Shown here: positions 24,321 through 42,206 of the stretch, in pieces
How the letters are laid out: the number at the start of each line of letters is the position of its first letter
Position numbering within the stretch: position 1 is the stretch's first letter
From: Methanocellales archaeon
Lineage (GTDB): Archaea > Halobacteriota > UBA148
DNA: 56,130 bases
Reading direction: 5' to 3'
Assembly (NCBI GenBank): GCA_030019435.1
Contig: JASEEV010000006.1
Coordinates: 1-56,130 of the forward strand
The notes under the pieces: generated by a model
Databases searched by the model: none
Told to the model about the DNA's origin: nothing
What the model saw: only the letters and a program-made list of their open reading frames with translations
Translations under genes and position numbers: made by a program

Positions 24321-24405
24321 GCCGGGGTGGCAGAGCGGACAAATGCGGCAGGCTCGAGACCTGTTGTTCCTTTGGAACGCTTGGGTTCAAATCCCAACCC
24401 TGGCG
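24321..24405 (+). tRNA. tRNA-Ser(CGA)
   Basis: Acceptor GCCGGGG/CCCTGGC, anticodon arm GCAGG-CTCGAGA-CCTGT, long variable arm GTTCC-TTT-GGAAC, T-loop TTCAAAT. Confidence 0.95.
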
Positions 24406-24408
24406 TGT

Positions 24409-25458
24409 ATGAGAAGAGCTAAATGGCATCATCTCGGCCATGATAGATGCACAGTCCCTATCTATGAGGCTTCCTCTCCTAGGGGAGTTGTTCCACTATT
24501 GAAAACCCTCATGAGCAGTTATTGCACGAACGACTGCAAGTTTTGCATGTTCAGGTCCTCTAGAAGGATCGACAGGTATAGGTGGGAGCCAGAAGAGTTA
24601 GCTAAGATAGCGATACATCTCTGGGAAATGAAAAAGATCAAGGGGCTTTTTTTGAGCTCTTCTTTCGAGGGAGATCCAGACGAGACGGTTGAGAGACAAC
24701 TAGAGACGGTGCGAATGCTCAGAAGAGACGGATTCACGGGATATATTCATCTTCGCCTTATGCCTGGGACAGGGATGGAAAAGATAAAAGAATCGATGAC
24801 ACTCTGCGATAGAATTGGAATAAACATCGAGTTTCCGAACAAGGAATTGTATGAGGAAATGAAGGGGGGTCCAATCGATTTTAGCCAAGATGTGATGAAA
24901 AGAATGGAGCAAATTTCCAGGATTGCCAGAAAGGAATGCCAGGCAGACGTTGATACCCAAATCGTTGTGGGAATTGAGGACTATGATGATGAAATCCTAA
25001 AGAAAACGGAGTGGCTCTATAAAAAATTGAACCTGGCCAGGGTATATTACTCTGGGTTTGAGCCAATCCCAGACACGCCTCTAGAAAAGCACCCTCCTTG
25101 TCCTAAGCTAAGGGAGCTCAGATTATATCAGACATCTTTCTTGCTCAGAGATTATGGTTTCAAATTAGACGACATGGTATTTGATGGAAAGGGGATGCTT
25201 CCCTTGGACGAGGATCCTAAATTCTTAGCAGCAAAGACGGCGGATTTATTCCTTGACATAAACGAGGCGTCCTATCTTGATCTACTGAGAGTTCCCGGGA
25301 TAGGGCCAGTCAGTGCTAGAAACATATTAGAAGAAAGACCTTTAAGGGACGAGAAGCAACTAAGGTCCATCGGAGTCAATCTCAAGAGGGCTAGACCATT
25401 TATCTTCCTCAAGGGAACGCAGAAGACCCTGGCGGATGAAAAAGTTTATCGTTCGTAG
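24409..25458 (+). CDS. Radical SAM protein with C-terminal helix-hairpin-helix (putative DNA modification/repair family)
   Basis: LLKTLMSSYCTNDCKFC, GLFLSS, YIHLRLMPG, RVYYSGF, RLYQTSFLLRDYGF, INEASYLDLLRVPGIGP. True start is after the tRNA. Confidence 0.88.
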   Translation: MRRAKWHHLGHDRCTVPIYEASSPRGVVPLLKTLMSSYCTNDCKFCMFRSSRRIDRYRWEPEELAKIAIHLWEMKKIKGLFLSSSFEGDPDETVERQLETVRMLRRDGFTGYIHLRLMPGTGMEKIKESMTLCDRIGINIEFPNKELYEEMKGGPIDFSQDVMKRMEQISRIARKECQADVDTQIVVGIEDYDDEILKKTEWLYKKLNLARVYYSGFEPIPDTPLEKHPPCPKLRELRLYQTSFLLRDYGFKLDDMVFDGKGMLPLDEDPKFLAAKTADLFLDINEASYLDLLRVPGIGPVSARNILEERPLRDEKQLRSIGVNLKRARPFIFLKGTQKTLADEKVYRS

Positions 25459-25543: not shown

Positions 25544-26794
25544 ATGCCTGAGGTGGGGATTTACAAGAGAAGAGGGCTAGAGATCTGGCTTGAGACTGCT
25601 GAGGATAACATCGAGCTTAAGTCCTCGGGTGCGCTCTCTAAATTGGCTTTTCCCTTGTTGAAAAGGGTAAACAAGATGTTAAGGAATGAGAAGCCAATCG
25701 AGGCGACTGAGGAGGAGGTGGTTTTAAGCACGTGGCTTCCACCGATTCCAAGCGAACCATTCCAAAGAGCCATAAAAGCCGAGATGGATATCTTGCTGAA
25801 GAGGAAATTCTCTCCCCAAGCGGTCTCAATGAATATTTCTGATTGTACACTCAATTGTAGCGAGTGCAACATAGTCGAGCATGAAGGAGAGCTCAAAACG
25901 AAAGAGGTGAAGGATTTTATAGCGCAGATCCAAGACCTTGGGGCGATTACAATTGGATTTGCGGAAGGAGACCCTCTTTTGAGAGAAGACCTTTTCGAAC
26001 TTATAGATTATATAGACAAGAAAAAGTCCATTGCGAGCGTTTTTACCCCCGGTCCTTTGTTGACGGATGAGGTGGCTGCGGAACTGAAAGAGCATGGAAT
26101 ATACGCCGTAATAACGGGAATTAAAAGCCCAATTCCCAGGGAGCATGATGCTGCGAGAGGACTAAAAGGAGCATTTGACAAAGCCGTAAGAGGGATGAAA
26201 AACGCGGTGGAGAATGATCTTTATGTTTCTATGCATACGCATGCAACACCGAAACTCGTGGAGAGCGGGGAGCTTACCAAAATCTACAAACTTGCCTCCA
26301 AGATTGGGGTTCATGAGTTGTCCATCTGGGACAGCCATCCAACCTGGAGTTATAAAGACAGAAAAGAGTTGATTTTGAAAGATAGGCACAGAGGGGAGAT
26401 CATGGAACTGTACAGGAAAGCAAACACCTCTAAAGAGGGACCAAGAATATTCTACAACGCTGTCTTTGAATCTCCAAAGCTCTTCGGCTGTATGGCAGGC
26501 AGGAGATGGTTGAACTTGATACACTCCGGAGACCTGACCCCCTGTACCTATGTACCAATCTCTTTTGGAAATATCAGGGAAGAAAGCGTGGAGAGGATTT
26601 GGAGAAGGATGCGCCAGTTTAAGGAATTCAGGAGGAAGAGATCCTGCGTGATGCTCGATAAGGAATTCAGGTCGAAATGTATCGACCCGTTCTCAGTATC
26701 TGACCTGCCCATCAGCTACAAAGATGTTGTTTTAGCCGAAAATCAAAGATTTTCAGGCTGTCAGAAACCCCCAAATGGGTTTCAACTCATTTGA
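25544..26794 (+). CDS. Radical SAM protein with Twitch/SPASM-like C-terminus (paralogue 1)
   Basis: CTLNCSEC, AEGDPLLR, GCMAGRR..GDLTPC..FGNI; N-terminal STWLPPIPSEPF. Confidence 0.9.
   Translation: MPEVGIYKRRGLEIWLETAEDNIELKSSGALSKLAFPLLKRVNKMLRNEKPIEATEEEVVLSTWLPPIPSEPFQRAIKAEMDILLKRKFSPQAVSMNISDCTLNCSECNIVEHEGELKTKEVKDFIAQIQDLGAITIGFAEGDPLLREDLFELIDYIDKKKSIASVFTPGPLLTDEVAAELKEHGIYAVITGIKSPIPREHDAARGLKGAFDKAVRGMKNAVENDLYVSMHTHATPKLVESGELTKIYKLASKIGVHELSIWDSHPTWSYKDRKELILKDRHRGEIMELYRKANTSKEGPRIFYNAVFESPKLFGCMAGRRWLNLIHSGDLTPCTYVPISFGNIREESVERIWRRMRQFKEFRRKRSCVMLDKEFRSKCIDPFSVSDLPISYKDVVLAENQRFSGCQKPPNGFQLI
26734..26783. repeat. Double-hairpin repeat element embedded in the 3' end of a CDS
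   Basis: GAAAATC-AAA-GATTTTC plus GAAACCC..GGGTTTC. The first hairpin is the reverse complement of GAAAATCTTTGATTTTC at 42461-42477. Confidence 0.7.
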
Positions 26795-26803
26795 AGGTGA
26801 ACC

Positions 26804-27994
26804 ATGGAATTTGTCGCATATGATTCAATTCTACTTAAGCTGGTTTTGGAGACCACAGACAGCAGGGTGAGGGTAAAGACTAGAGGGCCACTCTCCCCCT
26901 TCCTGGGAAAAGTGGAGCAGAAGTTTGATGCATATCTAAAAAATCTCCCGGCTGAAATAAGAGGGGACAAGCTTTATCTTTCAACCGCATTCCCGCCTGT
27001 ACCGAGCAATCCTTTTAAAAGACTTGTATTCTCTCAGATGAAAAGGGCTCTTGGTGTTCATACTCCAGATAACCTGACGATTATGGTTACAGGAGATTGC
27101 CAATGTGATTGCGAGCACTGTCTGGCATATAAAATGAATCGGGGCGAAGAGCTCTCTAAGAACGAGATATTCGATGTGATTGACCAAGCTCTGGAGCTTA
27201 GCGTGTCTCAAATCACTTTTGAAGGCGGTGAACCAACCTTAAGAAAAGACCTCCCTGAACTCATTGGATATATCGACAAAAGCAAGGCTACTTCAATGGT
27301 TGTAACAAATGGTCAGTATCTAACTAAGGATTATGTCCAGGAGCTTAAGGAGTTTGGACTGGATTACATAAATGTAAGTATAGATAGCCCTTACCCAGAG
27401 GAACACGATAAGTTTAGGGGGGTTTCAGGACTTTTTGAGGACGCTACAGAAGGGATAAAAAATTCTGTAGATGCGGGCATTCTAACTGGTGTTTTGTACA
27501 TCGCAAGACCGAGGAATTGCGACAGAGAGACTTTAGAAAAGATGGTGAATTACTGTGAAAAGCTCGGCGTCTTTGAGCTGATGATTGACAAAGTTGTTCC
27601 AAGCGGGAGATGGGCAGGTCATGATGTCTTGAGTGAAGAACAGGAGGAAGAGATAGTCAGGTTCCAGAAAGAGGCAGCCGAAAAGAAGGGGAAGAACTTG
27701 ATCACGAACTTTTTCCAGTTAAGGAGACCCGATTTTTTTGGATGCTTTGCGGGCAGAAGATGGTGCTACATCTCTCCCAGTGGGGATGTCATGCCGTGCA
27801 TGCATACTCCCCTCTCCTTTGGCAATGTGAGGGAGGAGAAATTATCAAAGATCTGGAGGAAAATTAGAAGGCACCCCCTCTTCAACAAAAAGCCAAAGAA
27901 ATGTGCATATGAAGATCCCCTATATAGAGGAAACTATTTGAAGAACATCCCTGGGGATGCCCCCCTTCCATATCCCATTAAGGAGATTGATTGA
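26804..27994 (+). CDS. Radical SAM protein with Twitch/SPASM-like C-terminus (paralogue 2)
   Basis: CQCDCEHC, EGGEPTLR, GCFAGRR..GDVMPC..FGNV; N-terminal STAFPPVPSNPF. Confidence 0.92.
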   Translation: MEFVAYDSILLKLVLETTDSRVRVKTRGPLSPFLGKVEQKFDAYLKNLPAEIRGDKLYLSTAFPPVPSNPFKRLVFSQMKRALGVHTPDNLTIMVTGDCQCDCEHCLAYKMNRGEELSKNEIFDVIDQALELSVSQITFEGGEPTLRKDLPELIGYIDKSKATSMVVTNGQYLTKDYVQELKEFGLDYINVSIDSPYPEEHDKFRGVSGLFEDATEGIKNSVDAGILTGVLYIARPRNCDRETLEKMVNYCEKLGVFELMIDKVVPSGRWAGHDVLSEEQEEEIVRFQKEAAEKKGKNLITNFFQLRRPDFFGCFAGRRWCYISPSGDVMPCMHTPLSFGNVREEKLSKIWRKIRRHPLFNKKPKKCAYEDPLYRGNYLKNIPGDAPLPYPIKEID

Positions 27995-27998
27995 TGTG

Positions 27999-28982
27999 AT
28001 GGCGTTTACTCCCTTAATGCCACTAACGGCTCTGTGGCAGTTGAAGGTGAAAAACAGACCTCTAATTCTTTCCCACGCAATTAATTCGAAGTGCAACCTA
28101 CACTGCAAATTTTGCCCATACTGGGAAGAGGATAGAGGGGAGATGCGCAGGGAGGAGGTGTTCAGCCTCCTTGAAGAAGCTAAGTCTTTAGGAATAATGC
28201 TTTATAACGCATGGACCGTCGAACCCCTTTTGAGGAAAGATCTTCCAGAAATTCTTAAACACGCTCATCACCTTGGGATGATAACCTCCCTTGTAACCAA
28301 TGGAGTCCTGCTGAAAAAGAGAGCCAAAGAACTCTCAGACCTTGATCATCTCTCGGTTTCTGTAGACGGTATTGAGTCCTATGAGGAGATGAGGGGAGTC
28401 AAGCTGGATAAGGTGTTGGATGGGATCAAAGAGGCAAGAGACAGGGGGATCACCACCGTAATAAACTGCGTCATCAGCGGAAAAAATTTGGACGAGATCG
28501 AGGAGCTAATACATTTAGCCCAAGAGTTAGGGGTGTGGATTTCATTTGAACCCATCCATGAATACGAAGACATCCCTCAAGAGGTGTGGGAAGATATAGG
28601 GATAAGAAATATGGGAAAGTATGGAAAAATCATCGACAGGATAATTGAATTAAAAGAAGAAGGCTTTCCTGTTATCAACTCCAAAACTTACCTCAGAATG
28701 ATAAAAAGTCTAAGCCCGGATTTTAGATGTCATGCCAGTGACATTGTGCTCGATGTTACATCGGATGGCAGGATAGAAACCTGCAGGGTTCACAGAGAAA
28801 GCCTAGGTGAGATCAAGGATGAACTGGCTAATGTCTGGAGATCCTCAAAGGCGAGGAGGAAAAAAATATCGATGGAATGCAGGGGATGCCTGTTTTTTGG
28901 ATATGCTGAATTAAGCCTCCTCTATTCCTTAAAACCTGAAGTAGTGCTAAATGGCATTAGAATACTAAATGATATTAGATAG
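27999..28982 (+). CDS. Radical SAM protein (PqqE-like, divergent)
   Basis: CNLHCKFC, WTVEPLLR in place of GGEP, VTNG, SVDG, C-terminal C..GRIETC..CRGC; ATG at 27999. Confidence 0.9.
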   Translation: MAFTPLMPLTALWQLKVKNRPLILSHAINSKCNLHCKFCPYWEEDRGEMRREEVFSLLEEAKSLGIMLYNAWTVEPLLRKDLPEILKHAHHLGMITSLVTNGVLLKKRAKELSDLDHLSVSVDGIESYEEMRGVKLDKVLDGIKEARDRGITTVINCVISGKNLDEIEELIHLAQELGVWISFEPIHEYEDIPQEVWEDIGIRNMGKYGKIIDRIIELKEEGFPVINSKTYLRMIKSLSPDFRCHASDIVLDVTSDGRIETCRVHRESLGEIKDELANVWRSSKARRKKISMECRGCLFFGYAELSLLYSLKPEVVLNGIRILNDIR

Positions 28983-28983
28983 T

Positions 28984-30123
28984 CTAAAGAAGATATTTCA
29001 CAAATCTTATCAACTTTGGATTCTTCAGAAGAAGGAGAAACCCCATGCTTAGGGAGTTCAGGATAACATTATCGTGTTTGGAGAGCTGTTGGGATATGTC
29101 CACACCCTCTAAAGCCCTCATTGCCTCGTCAAGCTCCTCATCTGGCATCTTCTCTATGGTCTTTAAGCCAAAACGTCCCACCCTATAATGGTTCAAAAAC
29201 TTCTTTTTCCACCGTCTCTCATATCTGGAAAGGAATCTCTTAGAGCTATCTTTCTTCTTCACCGCTTCTGCAGCAACCTCCCCGCAAAGCATGCCAGCAA
29301 CCATTCCATAGGCAATGCCAGCTTGTCCAGCAGCTCCCCCTGCAACCATCAACCTGTCGCCTACTAACTCGTTAGGCATTGTGATTATTTGATCCGCTCC
29401 ATCTGACACGTGAAGAATCTTAGCCTCATCGAACATGCCTCGCTGCAGGAATCTATCAAAATACTTCCTTGGCTCTTCTCCTCTAACAAATACTCCTGCA
29501 CTCGCTTTGCCATCTCCTTTTGGGGAAATCGTGGCTTTCCAGCCAGGTGCAACTTCTTTGCCCAAGAAATAGTGGAAATAATTTTCATCCACTTCTACAC
29601 CCTCCATCTCGGCCTGCATGGCATATGCAAGGTCTTCCGGATACTTCATCGTTTTTAACCCTGTTGCCTTAACGATTTCAGATTGTATACCAGAGGCGAG
29701 TACAAAAATCTCTCCATTGTACCTCTTCTTGCTCTCTCCCTCTTTTACAACCACTCCATCTCCATTGAGAGCCATGGCCTCGGAATTCATTTTGATCTCT
29801 GCGCCAGCATCCCTTGCCTTCTCAGTATAATAAGCATCAAACTTCTTCCTGTCAATAGAGAATCCCGGAGTTTCTATAGTTATGGTCGTCCCAAAGGGAG
29901 AAATTATATTCATTCCTTTGACCTTGTGAATGATGTATTCCTCTTTAGGCTCAAGTCCAATCATCTTAAAAAAGCCATCAAAGGAGGTATCTGCTGGGCT
30001 TGGAGCAGAATTGAAACTTTTCCTTTTCTCCAAGAGTAGAACATTAGCTCCCCCCTCTGCTGCTTTCCATGCCGCCATTAAGCCAGCAGGACTTGCACCT
30101 ATCACTATTACGTCGTATTTCAT
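28984..30123 (-). CDS. Geranylgeranyl-reductase-family FAD oxidoreductase (divergent)
   Basis: YDVIVIGASPAG, IDRKKFD, APGWKATISPKG, VAGGAAGQAGIAYG (GDAA variant). Confidence 0.85.
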   Translation of the reverse strand: MKYDVIVIGASPAGLMAAWKAAEGGANVLLLEKRKSFNSAPSPADTSFDGFFKMIGLEPKEEYIIHKVKGMNIISPFGTTITIETPGFSIDRKKFDAYYTEKARDAGAEIKMNSEAMALNGDGVVVKEGESKKRYNGEIFVLASGIQSEIVKATGLKTMKYPEDLAYAMQAEMEGVEVDENYFHYFLGKEVAPGWKATISPKGDGKASAGVFVRGEEPRKYFDRFLQRGMFDEAKILHVSDGADQIITMPNELVGDRLMVAGGAAGQAGIAYGMVAGMLCGEVAAEAVKKKDSSKRFLSRYERRWKKKFLNHYRVGRFGLKTIEKMPDEELDEAMRALEGVDISQQLSKHDNVILNSLSMGFLLLLKNPKLIRFVKYLL

Positions 30124-31325
30124 TCTTCTACCCGGTATGGTAATCTTTCTTCTTCAATTGCATTTCTAATATCGCCGAAATAATTCTCTCTGTATTGGGG
30201 GTCTCTCCATGTGCATGTTTCGGGCTTTTTCCTAAACAAGGGATGTCTTCTTATTTTTTTCCAAGCACTCTTCAAGCTTAGATCACGCACATTTCCAAAG
30301 GAGAGGGGAATGTGTAAGCATGGCATCACCTCGCCGATTGGCGATATCCACATCCACCTTCTTCCCGCAAAGCATCCCATGATATTTGGGTCTCTATAGG
30401 AGTAAGAAGAAGATACCCTGGGACCGCTTTTCCTCTTATTTGCCTCATTTTGAAATTCAGCTAACCTCTCGTAATCTTCCCTCTTTAAGAGGTTGTCATC
30501 CCTATATTCCCATCTTCCTCCAGGGACCACCTCATCGATCAAAATCTCATGTACGCCAAGAGAACTGCAATGTTTGTATAAATCCTCTAACCTCTCAAAA
30601 TCGGAGTCATATGGGGTGGCTGTGTATTCGACTATTCCTATCAGTCCTTCTTCAACACCATACTTGACTCCTGTAGAGGCTTTTTCAAAAGTCCCTTCAA
30701 CCCCTCTGAACTCATCATGTTCTTCTTGATAAGGACTATCGAGGCTAACATGTAGGTATACAAGTCCAGCATTCTTCAGCTTCCGTACGTATTCTTTTGT
30801 CAGGCGGAGCCCGTTCGTTATCAGGTGAGTGGAAGCCATGTTCGCATCAACATGCTCGATCAAATCGAATATGTCATCCCGAAGCGTCGGTTCTCCTCCC
30901 TCGAAGCTTACATGGTAAGCTCCGAGTTCAAGGGCCTGATCTATCACATAGTAAAGCTCCTTAGTGGAGAGTTCGGGCTCTCCCTCTATCCCATACACTA
31001 TACAGTGCTTGCATTTGCATTGGCATTTGCCCGTGGTTAACAACATTAAGCTCTCCGGTATGGATTTGCGCAAAAGGAGGCGTTTTATCTGGGCCTTTAC
31101 AAGCCTATTAAAAGGTCCACTAGGGGCGGGCGGCATTAAATTGGATATTACGACATCTTCTTCTCGAACAGCTGCTACCTTTTCCAGTGCTGCATGCGCG
31201 TTAAACCCTTCGGCAATATGTTCTACCAATTTTGAGAGTGCTCCTCTTGTCCTCATCTGGGCGCTTCTGCCATCTACATCAAAAAGAATCTCAAAGCCGG
31301 GACCTTTGTAAATCGATAATTCCAA
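30120..31325 (-). CDS. Radical SAM protein with Twitch/SPASM-like C-terminus (paralogue 3)
   Basis: CQCKCKHC, EGGEPTLR, GCFAGRR..GEVMPC..FGNV; N-terminal SNLMPPAPSGPF. Confidence 0.92.
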   Translation of the reverse strand: MELSIYKGPGFEILFDVDGRSAQMRTRGALSKLVEHIAEGFNAHAALEKVAAVREEDVVISNLMPPAPSGPFNRLVKAQIKRLLLRKSIPESLMLLTTGKCQCKCKHCIVYGIEGEPELSTKELYYVIDQALELGAYHVSFEGGEPTLRDDIFDLIEHVDANMASTHLITNGLRLTKEYVRKLKNAGLVYLHVSLDSPYQEEHDEFRGVEGTFEKASTGVKYGVEEGLIGIVEYTATPYDSDFERLEDLYKHCSSLGVHEILIDEVVPGGRWEYRDDNLLKREDYERLAEFQNEANKRKSGPRVSSSYSYRDPNIMGCFAGRRWMWISPIGEVMPCLHIPLSFGNVRDLSLKSAWKKIRRHPLFRKKPETCTWRDPQYRENYFGDIRNAIEEERLPYRVEE

Positions 31326-31347
31326 AGTGAATCCTCCTGTTATTCTG

Positions 31348-32274
31348 TTATATGGAAATGATAATATTGTAAGCTGCAGCTATGTTGATTATGACGAGCA
31401 TTATGGTGTAGTTTATAACGCCAACATGTGTCAGCTTTATATGGGCTTTATGCTCATCCGGGTGATTATAGGCATGGGAAAGCGCTCTAATTTTAAAGAT
31501 AGCCAACCCAAGGTATAGCATTAAGAATGTCCAGTTCAAGGTAAAGGTTTGCCAGAGCACTATGAGCCATAAGTATTCAAATATACTCATCACAACCGTG
31601 AATGATATCGTTCCCTTTGGCGTTAGCGGTGTAAAGCGCATCGAATCTTTATCATGGTAGGCCAAGCAGCCCATTATAACTGCCAGAGAAACTACGAAAG
31701 TCTCCCATGAAAGTATTCTTTCTGGGGCAACCATGGCGATGCCGCCCAGGACTATAAGCCCACTCAGGGAGCGGTAAATGCGTCTTTGAAGTTCTGTCAG
31801 CCTTTTCAAAGGTGGGCTTGCGGAGTAGGTTAACCCCCAGATGAGCATTAGGACTGCCACCAAAAAGCAGGTTGGATTGAATATGAAGAGGGCGACTAGT
31901 AGGCAGAATATCGTCTCAACTACCATGAAGAAGATGACGGTTTTTGGTGAGAGAAGCCCAGTTACCAGTGGGAGAGTTGAGTTTGGCGGACCAAGGCGTT
32001 CATCTTCTCCTGTCCACCAGTCATATAACATGTCTGCTTGGGAAATCACTCTTGTAAACAAGCCTGCTGCGAAGAGACCTAAAATAAGCTTCCATGGAGG
32101 GAGGAGGGGAGCTCCCAGTGCCATCAATAAAAGTGCTCCAGTAGCAGCGCACAAAGCACCCCAAGGAAGCCATAGTACTCGATGAACGCAAAGGATTGCA
32201 AGAATTTTAGCCTTTAATCCTTTACCTGTTGGTCCAGCTACGCCAAATCCTATGTCTAAGAGAGATGACTCCAT
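31348..32274 (-). CDS. UbiA-family prenyltransferase (divergent)
   Basis: Multi-TM protein with DMLYDWWTGED..LPLVTGLLSP (NDxxDxxxD-like), YSASPPLK (YS.PP.K) and YHDKDS as a second acidic motif. Confidence 0.75.
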   Translation of the reverse strand: MESSLLDIGFGVAGPTGKGLKAKILAILCVHRVLWLPWGALCAATGALLLMALGAPLLPPWKLILGLFAAGLFTRVISQADMLYDWWTGEDERLGPPNSTLPLVTGLLSPKTVIFFMVVETIFCLLVALFIFNPTCFLVAVLMLIWGLTYSASPPLKRLTELQRRIYRSLSGLIVLGGIAMVAPERILSWETFVVSLAVIMGCLAYHDKDSMRFTPLTPKGTISFTVVMSIFEYLWLIVLWQTFTLNWTFLMLYLGLAIFKIRALSHAYNHPDEHKAHIKLTHVGVINYTIMLVIINIAAAYNIIISI

Positions 32275-32279
32275 AACGA

Positions 32280-33161
32280 CTATCCCGATTCAGCTTTCGC
32301 TTTTTTGAGTAGCTCAAAATTACAAAAATCTTTGGGTATCGTTTTGATATAACCCAACTCTTTCATCAGTCCTGCAACTCGCATCATTATATCTATGCTG
32401 CCAGTTATGTCAATACGTGGTTGATTGTATCTTAGGGCCTCTCTTATAATCTCAGCGGAGATTCCGATGTATCTAGAACTGATTTTTGCAGCCTCTTCTG
32501 GCTCTTTATTGCAAAATTCGTCTGCTTTTAAGATTGCTTTTATAAACTTTAACGCCACATCGGAATGGTCTTGAAGAAAATCATCAGTGGTAGTAATGCT
32601 ACAACCTGGTGCTTTTGGAAGGACATCCTTACCTCTGGCGATTATCTTCCCTATCCCTAGTTCAACTGCCATTGTAGCGTAGGGCTCTACATTGGTTGTA
32701 GCATCTACCCTGCCGCTTAGCAGGGCAAGCATGGCTGCATCCCCACTTGGAAGCCGTAGAATCTCTGTGTTTTCTGGAGTTATATCATATTTTTTGAACA
32801 AAGCTTGAGATGTCAAGTCCTTCATACCACCTGCAGCTGGAAGCGAAATTCTTTTTCCCTTGAGCTCGGAAAGGCCGTCTATCTTTGCATCTCTTCGAAC
32901 TACCGTAGCTGGCTCTTCATAGCCTGAGCCAGCGATTACGACCAAGTTATCTCCCTTATCTCTCGCGCTCACTGTCCGCGTCCAGGGAAGAATGCCAAAA
33001 GAAATCTCACCAGAAATAAGTTTATTGGGCAATAGCCAAGCTGTTGGGTCAATGGAATATGAGACATCCAAACCCAGCTCTTTGAAAAACCCCCTCTCGT
33101 ATGCTATATATGCAGGCATCTGGCATATGCCCCTAATAAGCCCTATATTAATTTTTGACAA
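32280..33161 (-). CDS. NMT1/THI5/SsuA-like substrate-binding-fold protein lacking a signal peptide
   Basis: PAYIAYERGFFKELGLDV, ELKGKRI, LLSGRVDA..EPY; the sequence starts directly at the mature fold; no permease or ATPase gene adjacent. Confidence 0.85.
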   Translation of the reverse strand: MSKINIGLIRGICQMPAYIAYERGFFKELGLDVSYSIDPTAWLLPNKLISGEISFGILPWTRTVSARDKGDNLVVIAGSGYEEPATVVRRDAKIDGLSELKGKRISLPAAGGMKDLTSQALFKKYDITPENTEILRLPSGDAAMLALLSGRVDATTNVEPYATMAVELGIGKIIARGKDVLPKAPGCSITTTDDFLQDHSDVALKFIKAILKADEFCNKEPEEAAKISSRYIGISAEIIREALRYNQPRIDITGSIDIMMRVAGLMKELGYIKTIPKDFCNFELLKKAKAESG

Positions 33162-33275: not shown

Positions 33276-33349
33276 GGCCGGGGTGGGGTAGTTGGCTATC
33301 CTTTGGGACTGTGGATCCCACGACCCGGGTTCAAATCTCGGCCCCGGCC
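33276..33349 (+). tRNA. tRNA-His(GTG), G-1 encoded
   Basis: G-GCCGGGG/CCCCGGC-C, anticodon arm TGGGA-CTGTGGA-TCCCA, TTCAAAT. Confidence 0.95.
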
Positions 33350-33371
33350 TGTCTCATAGGACTTGATATAA

Positions 33372-34252
33372 GTGATTGACTTAGTAGTCAGCACCCTACT
33401 CTGGACGTGGAAGTTCACAAAAGAAGCCTCGCCTTGGTTACTGCTTGGCTTCCTGTTCGCAGGGATACTAAAAGCATTTGTTCCTTCTGAGTTCATTTTG
33501 AGATACTTAGGTCAAAGAAGCCTTCGTTCTATCCTAACAGCGACTTTGGTTGGAATTCCCTTGCCATTGGTCTATACAAGTCTGGAGCCTCAAGAGCAGC
33601 AACGCTTGCCTTTTTCATAGCCACGCCTGCGACGACCATCACCGCAATCCTAATCGCCATAGGAATGCTAGGATGGAAATTCACCGTGGCAATGATTCTG
33701 ACATGCTTTGGAGTCGCTTTGTTAACGGGATTGTTGTCTTTTATGGTAAAAGAGCGCGTAAAGCAAATGAAAGTGGAAAAAGAAGCCCACAGGCTAAGAG
33801 AGGTCTTTTCTTGTGAAGAGTGTGGAGATGTGTTCAAAGGGAGATTAAAATTTTCTTTTAGGTATGGGTTTATCGATATGGTCGAGGATATTGGATTGTA
33901 TGTAATTTTAGGGCTCATAATAGCGGGAATCATCGCTGCTCTAGCCCCAGGAGTGGTCATTGAGCGATATCTTGGGAGTGGGATAATTGCCTTGGTCATA
34001 ATGGTCTTGATCGCGACGCCGATGTATATTTGCTCAACCGGCTCCATTCCATTCATAACTGCTTTGATCGCGAAAGGGATGAATCCTTGCGTAGGATTGG
34101 TGTTTTTGGTCGTCGGTCCAGCAACCAACCTATCTACGATCTTCGCTATTGCGAAATCAATGGGTAAGAGAACTGCTTTGCTTTATGTCAGCTCTATAGT
34201 CATCTTCTCGATCCTAATCGCTTATTCCCTTGGTCTAGTGGGATGGATATGA
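33372..34252 (+). pseudogene. ArsP/DUF318-type (SO_0444-like) metal permease, split by a frameshift
   Basis: Frame 1: EASPWLLLGFLFAG..GIPLPL. Frame 2 continues LAIGLYKSGAS..FFIATP..PMYICSTGSIP..GPATN. The CSC motif is missing at the junction (~33558-33569). Confidence 0.8.
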
Positions 34253-36837: not shown

Positions 36838-38309
<1,472 letters not shown>

Positions 38310-38446
38310 AACGAAATACAGCCGATCGGAGCCGAAAAACTGCTAGGGTAGGCATGATAATACGAGATTCGTTGGGACCCCGGGGGAGCTTCTAACGCCC
38401 GAAATGTATATAATCTATTGGGTGTAACGAGATAGGTCGCTATGTG

Positions 38447-38558
38447 GGGCTCGTAGCTCAGTTGGAAGAGCGCTGCCTTTGCATCCGAGGGGCTTCGCCC
38501 CATTCGAACCCCAAGGCGAAATAGGCAGAGGCCCTGGGTTCAAATCCCAGCGAGTCCA
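38447..38558 (+). tRNA. tRNA-Ala(TGC) with 39-nt intron at 37/38 (38484-38522)
   Basis: GGGCTCG/CGAGTCC acceptor, CTGCC-TTTGCA|intron|A-GGCAG; BHB central helix TTTG/CGAA. Confidence 0.92.
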
Positions 38559-38561
38559 TTT

Positions 38562-38664
38562 CAAACCCCTTTAGAAAGGTGTTTGATCCCCAAAACCTTT
38601 TAGGAAAAGGTTTGATCCAAAAAGTAATATTTGGGGGAGTCAAGAGGGGGCAGAGCCCCCTTTG
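38562..38664. repeat. Three hairpin repeat units in the 16S-23S spacer
   Basis: CAAACCCCTTTAGAAAGGTGTTTGATCC, AAACCTTTTAGGAAAAGGTTTGATCCAAAAAG, GGGGGAGTCAAGAGGGGGCAGAGCCCCCTTTG. Confidence 0.75.
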
Positions 38665-38780
38665 TAGATGCACTCGGTGAGAGAAATCTCGTCGGGGAAG
38701 GGTGGATAGCGTTAATCAGCTAAATGAGACCGCGTATAAGTTTGCGACCCGGACGCTCACTGAGTTCAGTGAAGCGGATT

Positions 38781-41770
<2,990 letters not shown>

Positions 41771-41828
41771 TTGCTGAGCTGAGTTCAGGCGATATCTGGG
41801 TCGCAAACTTATACGCGGTTTTCAAAGC

Positions 41829-41854
41829 GGGTTTCAAGAGGGCGTAGCCCTTTG
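41829..41854. repeat. Hairpin repeat unit immediately before tRNA-Cys
   Basis: GGGTTTCAAGAGGGCGTAGCCCTTTG, same family as 38633-38664 and 40352-40380. Confidence 0.75.
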
Positions 41855-41856
41855 AT

Positions 41857-41977
41857 GCCAAGGTGGCGGAATGGCTAACGCAGCCGCCTGCAGATGAAAA
41901 AGGAAAAAGGTCATCGGAAAACTACGTTTTCCTCGGTGGAGAGCGGCTTTTTGCCGGTTCAATTCCGGTCCTTGGCT
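41857..41977 (+). tRNA. tRNA-Cys(GCA) with 48-nt intron at 37/38 (41894-41941)
   Basis: GCCAAGG/CCTTGGC acceptor, GCCGC-CTGCAG|intron|A-GCGGC, U73 discriminator; BHB helix CTGC/GTGG. Confidence 0.9.
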
Positions 41978-41983
41978 TGCGAC

Positions 41984-42053
41984 TACTTCCGAAGGAAGTA
42001 GGAGTGCTGCAACGAAGTTGCAGCTAGGAGATTCTGAGCGAAGAATCGAGGAG
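41984..42053. repeat. Run of three GAA-loop hairpins between tRNA-Cys and 5S
   Basis: CTACTTCC-GAA-GGAAGTAG, GCTGCAAC-GAA-GTTGCAGC, GAGATTCTGAGCGAAGAATCGAGGAG. Confidence 0.75.
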
Positions 42054-42077
42054 ACGATAGTCATTACGTTCATAAGT

Positions 42078-42206
42078 TGAGCATAGCGGCCATGGCGACG
42101 GGGAAACTCCTGGTCCCATCTCGAACCCAGAAGATAAGACCGTCCACGTTCTATGCTGTACTGAGGTGCGCGAGCCCTTGGGAACCATAGGTCGCTGCTA
42201 TGCTCA
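42078..42206 (+). rRNA. rrf: 5S rRNA
   Basis: TAGCGGCCAT..CCCATCTCGAACCCAGAAGATAAG..GGGAACCATAGGTCGCTGCTA; terminal stem TGAGCATAGC/GCTATGCTCA. Confidence 0.96.

Follow-up and report, generated by a model that had tools for sequence, protein, structure and literature searches.

A conserved cluster of radical SAM, UbiA-type and geranylgeranyl reductase-like genes in an archaeon lacking mcrA: a candidate pathway for a prenylated membrane electron carrier

Methanosarcinales use methanophenazine as their membrane electron carrier, and the same is inferred for the anaerobic methanotrophic archaea ANME-2. Methanophenazine is a 2-hydroxyphenazine ether of a partly saturated polyprenyl chain, in which the first isoprene unit is saturated; MenJ partly saturates the prenyl tail of mycobacterial menaquinone. 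To our knowledge, the methanophenazine pathway has remained unknown since 1998, and a geranylfarnesyl diphosphate synthase (GFPS; MM0789/MA0606) was reportedly described by Ogawa in 2010. In the published accounts, this synthase is the sole enzyme tied to methanophenazine and the pathway is called undeciphered (PMC3017947, PMC6315138, bioRxiv 10.1101/2021.06.11.448114); the C25 synthase was assigned to methanophenazine since methanogen membrane lipids generally use C20 chains (PMC3017947). Of two further papers, one deduces methanophenazine use in the uncultured ANME-2 solely from the absence of Mqn genes and the phylogeny of Fpo (PMC9012536), and the other describes Methanonatronarchaeia with 'methanophenazine-like electron carriers' (PMC9796771). 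HdrDE and a GFPS homologue are reported for the 'Methylarchaeales' of Thermoproteota (PMC9478090). Our literature search, outside which lay subscription journals and supplements, found nothing linking radical S-adenosylmethionine (SAM), UbiA or geranylgeranyl reductase (GGR) genes to the pathway. Here we analyze a 56,130-nucleotide stretch (the window) of contig JASEEV010000006.1 from an archaeon deposited as 'Methanocellales archaeon' (assembly GCA_030019435.1), in which seven clustered genes encode four radical SAM proteins (rSAM1-4), a UbiA-superfamily protein, a GGR-like flavoprotein and a substrate-binding protein (SBP)-fold protein. Sequence comparisons suggest that this cluster probably makes a prenylated, partly saturated membrane electron carrier by a pathway homologous to the unsolved methanophenazine route of Methanosarcinales. 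From the gene content, conservation, orthology, neighbourhoods and phyletic pattern documented below, we infer each step of the chemistry as well as what the product is.

The seven open reading frames (ORFs) at 25544-33161 form two convergent operons, rSAM1-rSAM2-rSAM4 on the forward strand and SBP-UbiA-rSAM3-GGR on the reverse strand (Table 1). Neighbouring genes in the cluster are separated by -4 to 22 bp, and just 1 bp lies between the ends of the two operons. The rSAM4 ORF more likely starts at an ATG that comes after the rSAM2 stop, because its orthologues align only from about residue 15. The initial annotation, made from the letters of the window alone, had described these seven genes as two tight convergent operons between tRNA-Ser and tRNA-His. 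Its gene coordinates, the tight packing (gaps of at most 22 bp) and, by Pfam, its domain calls all hold, and the flanks are right, with one amendment: the interval between the two tRNAs contains eight ORFs, seven of which are the cluster, and directly after tRNA-Ser stands a fifth, unrelated radical SAM protein with a helix-hairpin-helix (HhH) domain. The cluster shares with the candidate methanophenazine genes of Methanosarcina the orthologues of rSAM1-3, rSAM4 and GGR, one paralogue of which lies by GFPS and another in a UbiA-GGR-rSAM operon, and it would share the expected chemistry (a head group, a prenyl ether and one saturated isoprene unit). It differs in that the host lacks mcrA and the GFPS type, the UbiA belongs to an orphan clade, and an SBP-fold protein is added; furthermore, the Methanosarcina genes are scattered, whereas those of the window are all clustered. 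Of these Methanosarcina genes, GFPS alone was found to be characterised in the literature searched. The futalosine (Mqn) pathway to menaquinone offers the same mix of superfamilies and likewise yields a prenylated membrane carrier, with the SBP-fold enzymes MqnA and MqnD, the radical SAM enzymes MqnC and MqnE and the UbiA enzyme MqnP. However, the rSAMs of the window are of SPASM/Twitch type rather than CofG/H-like, the SBP has no PF02621 domain, the UbiA misses the MqnP models, and Mqn genes occur in other genome families than the rSAM set, save for one f17 genome.

Table 1. Positions of the cluster genes, flanking landmarks and multihaem cytochromes c (window coordinates unless a host contig is named)
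Feature	Position	Strand	Description
rSAM1	25544-26794	+	radical SAM; family-specific N-terminal domain of ~90 aa; partial SPASM/Twitch-like domain
rSAM2	26804-27994	+	paralogue of rSAM3 (45% identity)
rSAM4	27957-28982	+	shorter radical SAM enzyme; probable true start 27999
GGR-like FAD enzyme	28984-30123	-	geranylgeranyl reductase superfamily
rSAM3	30120-31325	-	radical SAM enzyme always accompanying UbiA and SBP
Divergent UbiA-superfamily membrane prenyltransferase (predicted)	31348-32274	-	orphan clade
NMT1/THI5-fold (type II SBP-fold) protein	32280-33161	-	cytoplasmic by inspection; always beside UbiA
tRNA-Ser(CGA)	24321-24405	+	left landmark, outside the pathway
Fifth radical SAM protein with C-terminal helix-hairpin-helix	~24409-25458	+	between tRNA-Ser and rSAM1; unrelated to the cluster
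tRNA-His(GTG)	33276-33350	+	right boundary, outside the pathway
Multihaem cytochromes c (68, 37, 35, 16 CXXCH)	C44:27120-35957, C9:1-7593, C6:1480-5895, C11:98088-99248		host contigs

The arrangement is conserved among relatives. Thirteen related loci were compared, and the seven-gene convergent layout is whole in four of them (L011, L012, L017 and L018); five are cut by contig ends or show the triad only (L013, L014, L015 and L020 being cut by contig ends), and L016 and L019 are rearranged. Twelve related loci reach far enough to show the SBP-UbiA-rSAM3 triad, and 11 of them, Methanonatronarchaeia included, have it. In assemblies of the Methanonatronarchaeia type, the triad and the rSAM1-rSAM2-rSAM4 block form two separate loci at 42-61% identity (5/5 handles, two of which are apparently the same assembly), with the triad standing among unrelated genes; GGR lies within ~2 kb of the rSAM1-rSAM2-rSAM4 block in three of the four distinct assemblies and elsewhere in G023. 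Both loci are present in the cultured Methanonatronarchaeum thermophilum. Because layout, triad and block recur in related loci, the seven-gene arrangement is not due to chance, and the expectation of the initial annotation that the genes co-occur and stay syntenic in other genomes is borne out by the four whole loci and by the sub-blocks of Methanonatronarchaeia. One rearranged locus, L019:5887-20408, in a metagenome-assembled genome labelled Bathyarchaeia, carries an ICMT/PEMT-like membrane methyltransferase between SBP and UbiA, an extra rSAM paralogue, another GGR and another UbiA, the last of these more canonical and linked by hhalign to canonical UbiA (probability 94.6%); HypD and a NiFe hydrogenase with a Tat signal follow directly downstream. 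The window-type UbiA is present as two overlapping ORFs in L023:9558-10500 and contains one in-frame TAA in G001:C5:30727-31638; either could stem from sequencing error or from decay.

Five of the seven genes (rSAM1-3, rSAM4 and GGR) have orthologues in genomes of Methanosarcinaceae, Methanothrix and ANME-2 type. We searched 151 genomes evenly drawn from the phylum with the rSAM3 family (E ≤ 1e-70); judging from sequence identity to proteins with names, from the tree and from loci of named organisms, we read genome family f4 as Methanosarcinaceae, f20 as Methanotrichaceae and f13 as Methanonatronarchaeia. A separate search with rSAM3 itself returned full-length relatives at 33-41% identity that are named as Methanosarcina, Methanococcoides, Methanothrix and Methanosarcinales. 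This N-terminally extended rSAM family is present in three copies per genome in f4 (19/19), f20 (6/6) and the order of the host (6/6). It also occurs in f7 (4/4, three copies in three of them) and f13 (3/3, one or two copies at E ≤ 1e-70), with single matches in f17 (1/2) and f26 (1/1) and none in the 109 genomes of other families, giving a total of 40 of the 151 genomes. In a maximum-likelihood tree, rSAM1 groups with the Methanosarcinales paralogue C (support 100/100), rSAM2 and rSAM3 form a clade (100/99), the Methanosarcinales paralogues A and B form another (100/100), and these two clades are joined with support 96/91. Thus, as judged from the tree, rSAM2 and rSAM3 are co-orthologous to paralogues A and B. 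Single-copy orthologues of rSAM4 at 49-58% identity are found in f4 (19/19), f20 (6/6), f7 (3/4) and f13 (3/3), 37 of the 151 genomes in total and none in the other families of this sample; named matches come from ANME-2, Methanolobus, Methanohalobium and Methanothrix. The window GGR is the reciprocal best match of the UbiA-adjacent GGR in G123 and G014 (37-39% identity, 254-287 bits), compared with 126-146 bits for other GGR paralogues.

The neighbourhoods of these orthologues connect them with isoprenoid enzymes. The gene immediately upstream of paralogue A encodes a polyprenyl synthase, which in G123 matches NF040627 GFPS_Meth over its full length at 574.5 bits (cut-off 600; next-best family 146.7). 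In 28 of 29 genomes (f4 19/19, f7 3/4, f20 6/6), at most 150 bp separate paralogue A from a GFPS-type synthase gene. Paralogue B is part of a UbiA-GGR-rSAM operon in G123 and G014, and in all 19 f4 genomes a UbiA is one gene away from it. The Methanosarcina-type UbiA (E ≤ 1e-30) is found in f4 (19/19), f7 (3/4), f20 (6/6) and f26 (1/1), and nowhere else in the sample, the host's order and f13 included. The window-type UbiA, searched in 41 relatives, is present in 11 of 14 genomes of the host's own order (G000 included), in 2/2 of f13 and in 0/25 others; the three own-order genomes without it are 63-89% complete. Each lineage with the rSAM set therefore has one of two dedicated UbiA types. If the candidate methanophenazine set of Methanosarcinales is defined, as here, as the rSAM trio, rSAM4, the UbiA-linked GGR, the GFPS-type C25 synthase and the Methanosarcina-type UbiA, the first three components are present in the host and the last two are absent. 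As to the wider surroundings, in Methanosarcinaceae-type genomes (L048, L051) ccmE is located upstream of GFPS and paralogue A, and AhbD is often within ~2 kb. AhbD, ccmE, GFPS and paralogue A are grouped just upstream of the A1A0 ATPase (aha) operon, a gene island of respiratory cofactors. A SAM hydroxide adenosyltransferase gene (DUF62 family) adjoins the rSAM4 orthologue in both Methanosarcinaceae-type genomes examined (L057:8334-9125 and L058:4810-5598). No lead to a head-group precursor came from the genes around paralogue C and the rSAM4 orthologue in Methanosarcinaceae.

The set is distributed apart from menaquinone genes. In the 151-genome sample, MqnA/D occurs in f6 (24/24), f12 (17/19) and f17 (2/2), and MenA in f10 (11/11), f16 (1/1), f18 (7/7), f19 (2/2) and f21 (3/3), 24/24 in all. 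MqnA/D, MenA and the rSAM set thus fall in separate families, the sole overlap being the f17 genome G122 with its single rSAM match. Within the order of G123, rSAM4 was found in 78 genomes, namely all those of f4 (60/60), f28 (9/9) and f29 (9/9), and in none of the 41 genomes of f30. The f30 family could be the menaquinone-using Methanoperedenaceae, for which one paper reports futalosine genes and no methanophenazine (PMC5244752). The pattern is also not that of haem synthesis, because AhbD-like genes are much more widely distributed (76/151 genomes) and extend to many families without the set, f5, f6, f12, f15, f18 and f21 among them.

This last comparison bears on the possibility that the cluster makes a prenylated tetrapyrrole, that is, a haem O/A-like or chlorophyll-like cytochrome cofactor trimmed by AhbC/AhbD/NirJ-like rSAMs, prenylated by a haem-O-synthase-like UbiA and reduced by a BchP-like GGR, which we consider very unlikely. 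The pairing of UbiA with GGR parallels that of ChlG/BchG with ChlP/BchP, and this parallel would favour a tetrapyrrole. Ahb genes are present in all lineages with the set, and in Methanosarcinaceae the GFPS-rSAM pair adjoins ccmE, often within ~2 kb of AhbD. Moreover, AhbD and NirJ2, enzymes of haem and haem d1 synthesis, are the best NCBIfam matches of rSAM1-3 (118-135 bits), and the radical SAM core and the first auxiliary-cluster motif are common to both groups. Yet the scores are only a quarter of the equivalog cut-offs. Against AhbD (TIGR04545, cut-off 500), rSAM1, rSAM2, rSAM3 and rSAM4 score 127.6, 135.2, 131.7 and 65.8 bits, and against AhbC (TIGR04546, cut-off 650) all four score 64.5-106.7 bits, so that the range is 64-135 bits versus cut-offs of 500-650. 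A true AhbD and an AhbC-like gene are encoded elsewhere in 5/5 genomes tested; in the host they are located at C54:26367-27368 (562.5 bits) and C54:36540-37682 (347.9 bits), respectively. The window proteins further differ from AhbC, AhbD and NirJ in their extra N-terminal domain and in the missing second SPASM motif, and the cluster holds no tetrapyrrole gene.

All four rSAMs match the Pfam family Radical_SAM (PF04055) at 51.7-81.5 bits, the lowest score being that of rSAM1, and carry the CX3CX2C cysteines (residues 101/105/108 in rSAM1, 99-106 in rSAM2, 101-108 in rSAM3 and 46/50/53 in rSAM4). The Pfam SPASM domain is above cut-off in rSAM1-3 (38.7 bits in rSAM1) and slightly under it in rSAM4 (19.9 vs 21.5), whose nearest family is PTO1314 (TIGR03961; 146.2 bits, under the cut-off of 306). 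A test for a full SPASM domain (CX9-15GX4C plus CX2CX5CX3C) was negative. Both rSAM1-3 and their Methanosarcinales relatives lack the CX2CX5CX3C motif of the second cluster, which is present in the host's own AhbD in the same alignment, and retain GCxAGxxW...PC plus one further cysteine. In paralogue C of G123 (L050, G123:C1:2828536-2829648; relatives P0144 and P0146), the GC...PC auxiliary-cluster cysteines are lost, in addition to the core cysteines considered below.

SPASM domains are frequent in peptide maturases, and the rSAMs might accordingly produce a ribosomally synthesized and post-translationally modified peptide (RiPP) or a peptide-derived cofactor resembling pyrroloquinoline quinone or mycofactocin, which would then be prenylated. 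We give almost no credence to this explanation, for which speak the SPASM matches in families rich in PqqE, MftC, SkfB and AlbA and the extra N-terminal domain of ~90 residues common to rSAM1-3, a position at which peptide maturases often hold their recognition element. However, the auxiliary domain is only partial and Twitch-like, none of the cluster proteins matches the PqqD/RiPP recognition element family (PF05402) at E ≤ 0.01, and the test for RiPP maturases was negative. There is no room for a precursor gene, because the gaps are at most 22 bp, and the conserved partners are isoprenoid enzymes, with no conserved peptidase or transporter among them.

None of the seven proteins, the remaining three included, reaches a curated equivalog cut-off or is an orthologue of a characterised enzyme. 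The GGR has the FAD Rossmann and GGR catalytic domains found also in MenJ, GGR and ChlP/BchP (PF22578 GGR_cat, 34.5 bits vs a cut-off of 27), and by analogy with MenJ it may saturate the tail. It is, though, below the subfamily cut-off of GG-red-SF (TIGR02032; 127.4 vs 158.8 bits), scores only 25.6 bits on the MenJ model, and forms an orthologous group of its own with the UbiA-adjacent GGR of Methanosarcinales. The UbiA matches PF01040 at 45 bits (cut-off 34.2) and has at least seven hydrophobic segments. Its only NCBIfam match is TIGR01475 (ubiA_other; 33.2 bits, cut-off 180.8), and it matches none of the MqnP models. Relatives are rare: 24 were found among 5.8 billion clusters, a profile search of 1.84 billion representatives gave two clusters at E ≤ 1e-10 and four at E ≤ 0.001, and the same profile had no match at E ≤ 1 among the Protein Data Bank (PDB) sequences. 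D81/D85/E90/D91 and D208/D210 are invariant; of the first motif, the canonical Asp positions are matched by D85 and E92 alone, and the second motif reads HDKD. The SBP matches PF09084 (NMT1/THI5) at 90.5 bits from residue 15 on. It appears, by inspection, to be cytoplasmic, because its N-terminus is not hydrophobic, it has no hydrophobic segment and the NMT1 match begins at residue 3-15. Mean column identity over 12 orthologues is 77%, with many invariant polar residues. Although it shares the fold of THI5/NMT1 and of SsuA/TauA-type SBPs, it lacks a signal peptide, a transporter partner and the Lys/His pair of THI5, and is always encoded beside UbiA. THI5 is the best PDB match of its profile (E 1.2e-13), and we take the catalytic residues of THI5 to be Lys62, which forms the imine with pyridoxal phosphate, and His66. 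In the HMMER alignment to 4h65, the THI5 segment GLKAMIHT pairs with AILPWTRV, so that the K62/H66 positions are the invariant P59/R62 in the SBP, and the test for a THI5-type hydroxymethylpyrimidine phosphate synthase was negative. PF02621 (MqnA/MqnD) has no match in the SBP at E ≤ 0.01 and is absent from all six genomes of the host's order. A protein atlas search with the SBP returned generic NMT1/SsuA clusters only.

Radical SAM, GGR and UbiA enzymes are all used in archaeal lipid synthesis as well, and the cluster might modify membrane isoprenoid lipids instead, producing an unusual ether lipid or polyprenyl conjugate by UbiA, with saturation by GGR and C-C bonds, rings or methylations introduced by the rSAMs, as by Tes, Grs and GDGT-MAS. 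We regard this as unlikely, if less so than a tetrapyrrole or a peptide product. GDGT-MAS (7tol, 526 aa) is among the PDB matches of rSAM3 (28.1 bits) and rSAM4 (27.4 bits); the UbiA of the Methanosarcina operon is nearest to models resembling digeranylgeranylglyceryl phosphate (DGGGP) synthase; and the methyltransferase of L019 belongs to an ICMT/PEMT-type family that includes phospholipid methyltransferases. However, the similarity to GDGT-MAS, at ~28 bits, extends only over the radical SAM core (residues 98-200 and 36-201), and a full-length test against Tes and GDGT-MAS was negative. The DGGGP synthase equivalogs (NF009521 and relatives) reject the window UbiA, while a bona fide DGGGP synthase is encoded elsewhere in the host, on contig C1 (332.9 bits, cut-off 296), as are two other GGR paralogues. 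In three families the partner that is conserved is the C25 synthase, assigned in the literature to methanophenazine (PMC3017947). A role in lipid tailoring also does not predict the separation of the set from MqnA/D and MenA between families.

On the level of single proteins, most of the initial annotation stands. The rSAMs are indeed not orthologues of AhbC, AhbD or Tes, nor are they MqnC/E-like; the UbiA is not the ordinary DGGGP synthase, which is on another contig; and the SBP does look cytoplasmic. The PqqE/SPASM-type motifs ascribed to the rSAMs are confirmed as SPASM matches in rSAM1-3 and qualified in that the domain is only partial, and the SBP, for which a comparison with MqnA/MqnD/Thi5 had been proposed, does not match the MqnA/D family and lacks the catalytic Lys/His of THI5.

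Taken together, these comparisons favour a membrane electron carrier, which could be assembled as follows. Starting from a small-molecule precursor, the four rSAMs would build or tailor a redox-active head group, which the soluble SBP-fold protein may bind, form or hand over at the membrane; the divergent UbiA would then attach a polyprenyl chain, probably C20; and the GGR-like flavoprotein would saturate at least one isoprene unit of the tail. The tail is probably C20, or from a bifunctional synthase, because only one trans-prenyl synthase is encoded in each of the complete relatives G007 and G023 (the host has two) and no GFPS type was found. The finished carrier may link cytoplasmic oxidations to very large multihaem cytochromes c in this small-genome host without Mcr. 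The set has survived in archaea that lack Mcr and whose cytochromes have up to 68 haem motifs, which suggests that the carrier serves extracellular electron transfer beyond methane metabolism. The host genome has no mcrA, and neither has any of the six genomes of its order. This order is not the sole Mcr-less group with the set, since mcrA is also missing from f7 (0/4), which has GFPS-rSAM, UbiA and rSAM4, and from f26 (0/1).

More tentatively, the cluster and its Methanosarcinales orthologues may be the methanophenazine pathway itself, the orthologues being the rSAM next to GFPS, the operon of UbiA, GGR and rSAM, paralogue C and the counterpart of rSAM4. In this proposal, to which we attach somewhat less confidence than to a homologous carrier pathway, the head group (phenazine or a related heterocycle) would be made by four radical SAM enzymes without Phz-type chemistry, O-prenylated by a dedicated UbiA and reduced in one isoprene unit by GGR; the window would represent a variant with an orphan UbiA and a soluble SBP partner, serving extracellular electron transfer via giant multihaem cytochromes after the loss of methanogenesis. 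If this is true, a defined gene set offers knock-out targets in the genetically tractable Methanosarcina and a genomic marker for methanophenazine-type respiration in metagenomes, and points towards redox head-group synthesis by radical SAM enzymes. The arrangement in the window is the only one in which all pieces are side by side.

Several observations weigh against a carrier of this kind or against its kinship with methanophenazine. No GFPS-type synthase was found at E ≤ 1e-60 in the host, in its order (0/6) or in f13 (0/3); because host, order and f13 are without both mcrA and the GFPS-type synthase, the tail, and perhaps the product, would differ from methanophenazine. Methanosarcinales-type genomes contain orthologues of neither the window UbiA nor the SBP, the best SBP matches there being 21-27% identical, and hhalign finds no link between the two types of UbiA (probability 0.6%). 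The surroundings of both paralogue C and the rSAM4 orthologue in Methanosarcinaceae are housekeeping genes (for ribosomal proteins, a class I tRNA synthetase, eIF-2 beta and a KaiC-like ATPase), and only window-type clusters tie these two to the remaining genes. Paralogue C of G123 lacks the CX3CX2C cysteines, which the G014 and G098 orthologues retain, and may be a pseudo-enzyme in the genus of G123. A search for an obvious carrier-using respiratory enzyme in the host found none, and a NarI/HdrE-type match was not found there. The genes neighbouring the 16-haem cytochrome are cobalamin and ATP-binding cassette transport genes, and the antiporter-like genes on contig C13 look, by gene order only, like the Mrp/Mbh type rather than the complex I/Fpo type. 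The families with the rSAM set may descend from few ancestors, so that the phyletic contrasts are few and not independent, and the names of the families f4, f20, f13 and f30 are themselves deduced. The fit to methanophenazine suggested initially is accordingly upheld in part: five of the seven genes have orthologues in methanophenazine-type lineages, near GFPS and in a UbiA-GGR-rSAM operon, and, but for the one genome G122, are not found in menaquinone families, whereas the host has neither mcrA nor a GFPS-type synthase and the UbiA and SBP are without Methanosarcinales orthologues.

The assembly of the host, an uncultured archaeon that is not a methanogen, is 1.42 Mb in size and 94% complete. 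Its close relatives carry the NCBI labels 'Methanocellales archaeon', 'Methanosarcinales archaeon Met12/Met33H', 'Methanocellaceae archaeon UBA148' and 'Halobacteriota archaeon'. The multihaem cytochromes c are spread over four contigs (Table 1); the CcmF gene comes next after the 68-haem gene, CcmE is also encoded, and the 16-haem cytochrome has a NapC/NirT-like N-terminus (22.3 bits, cut-off 24.1). A Fae/Hps fusion is encoded as well. On contig C13 (16327-27201), seven small ORFs of membrane-subunit size are followed by four consecutive antiporter-like subunits (~495 aa) and then by a 674-aa ORF at the contig end. A search of sequencing runs gave three DNA runs (small shares, 0.05-0.06) and listed no RNA run.

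Turning to the flanks of the cluster, the fifth radical SAM ORF reaches 230 bits (cut-off 343.5) with TIGR03916, a putative DNA modification/repair family, and none of the 13 related loci has a syntenic counterpart of it. The start of this fifth ORF is probably the ATG at 24409, because the ORF as listed (from 24316) overlaps tRNA-Ser. On the other side, an ArsP-type permease ORF (33665-34252, +) matches only positions 108-290 of the 294 in the profile; the N-terminal part may be in a separate upstream ORF (33372-33620, +), suggesting a frameshift or a wrong start. The archaeal nature of the window is evident from an archaeal RNase P RNA and a complete rRNA operon (16S, 23S and 5S) at 36838-42203. 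Inside this operon, Rfam matches two tRNAs, at 38447-38558 (112 nt) and 41857-41977 (121 nt), both of which are probably intron-containing, because ARAGORN did not call them.

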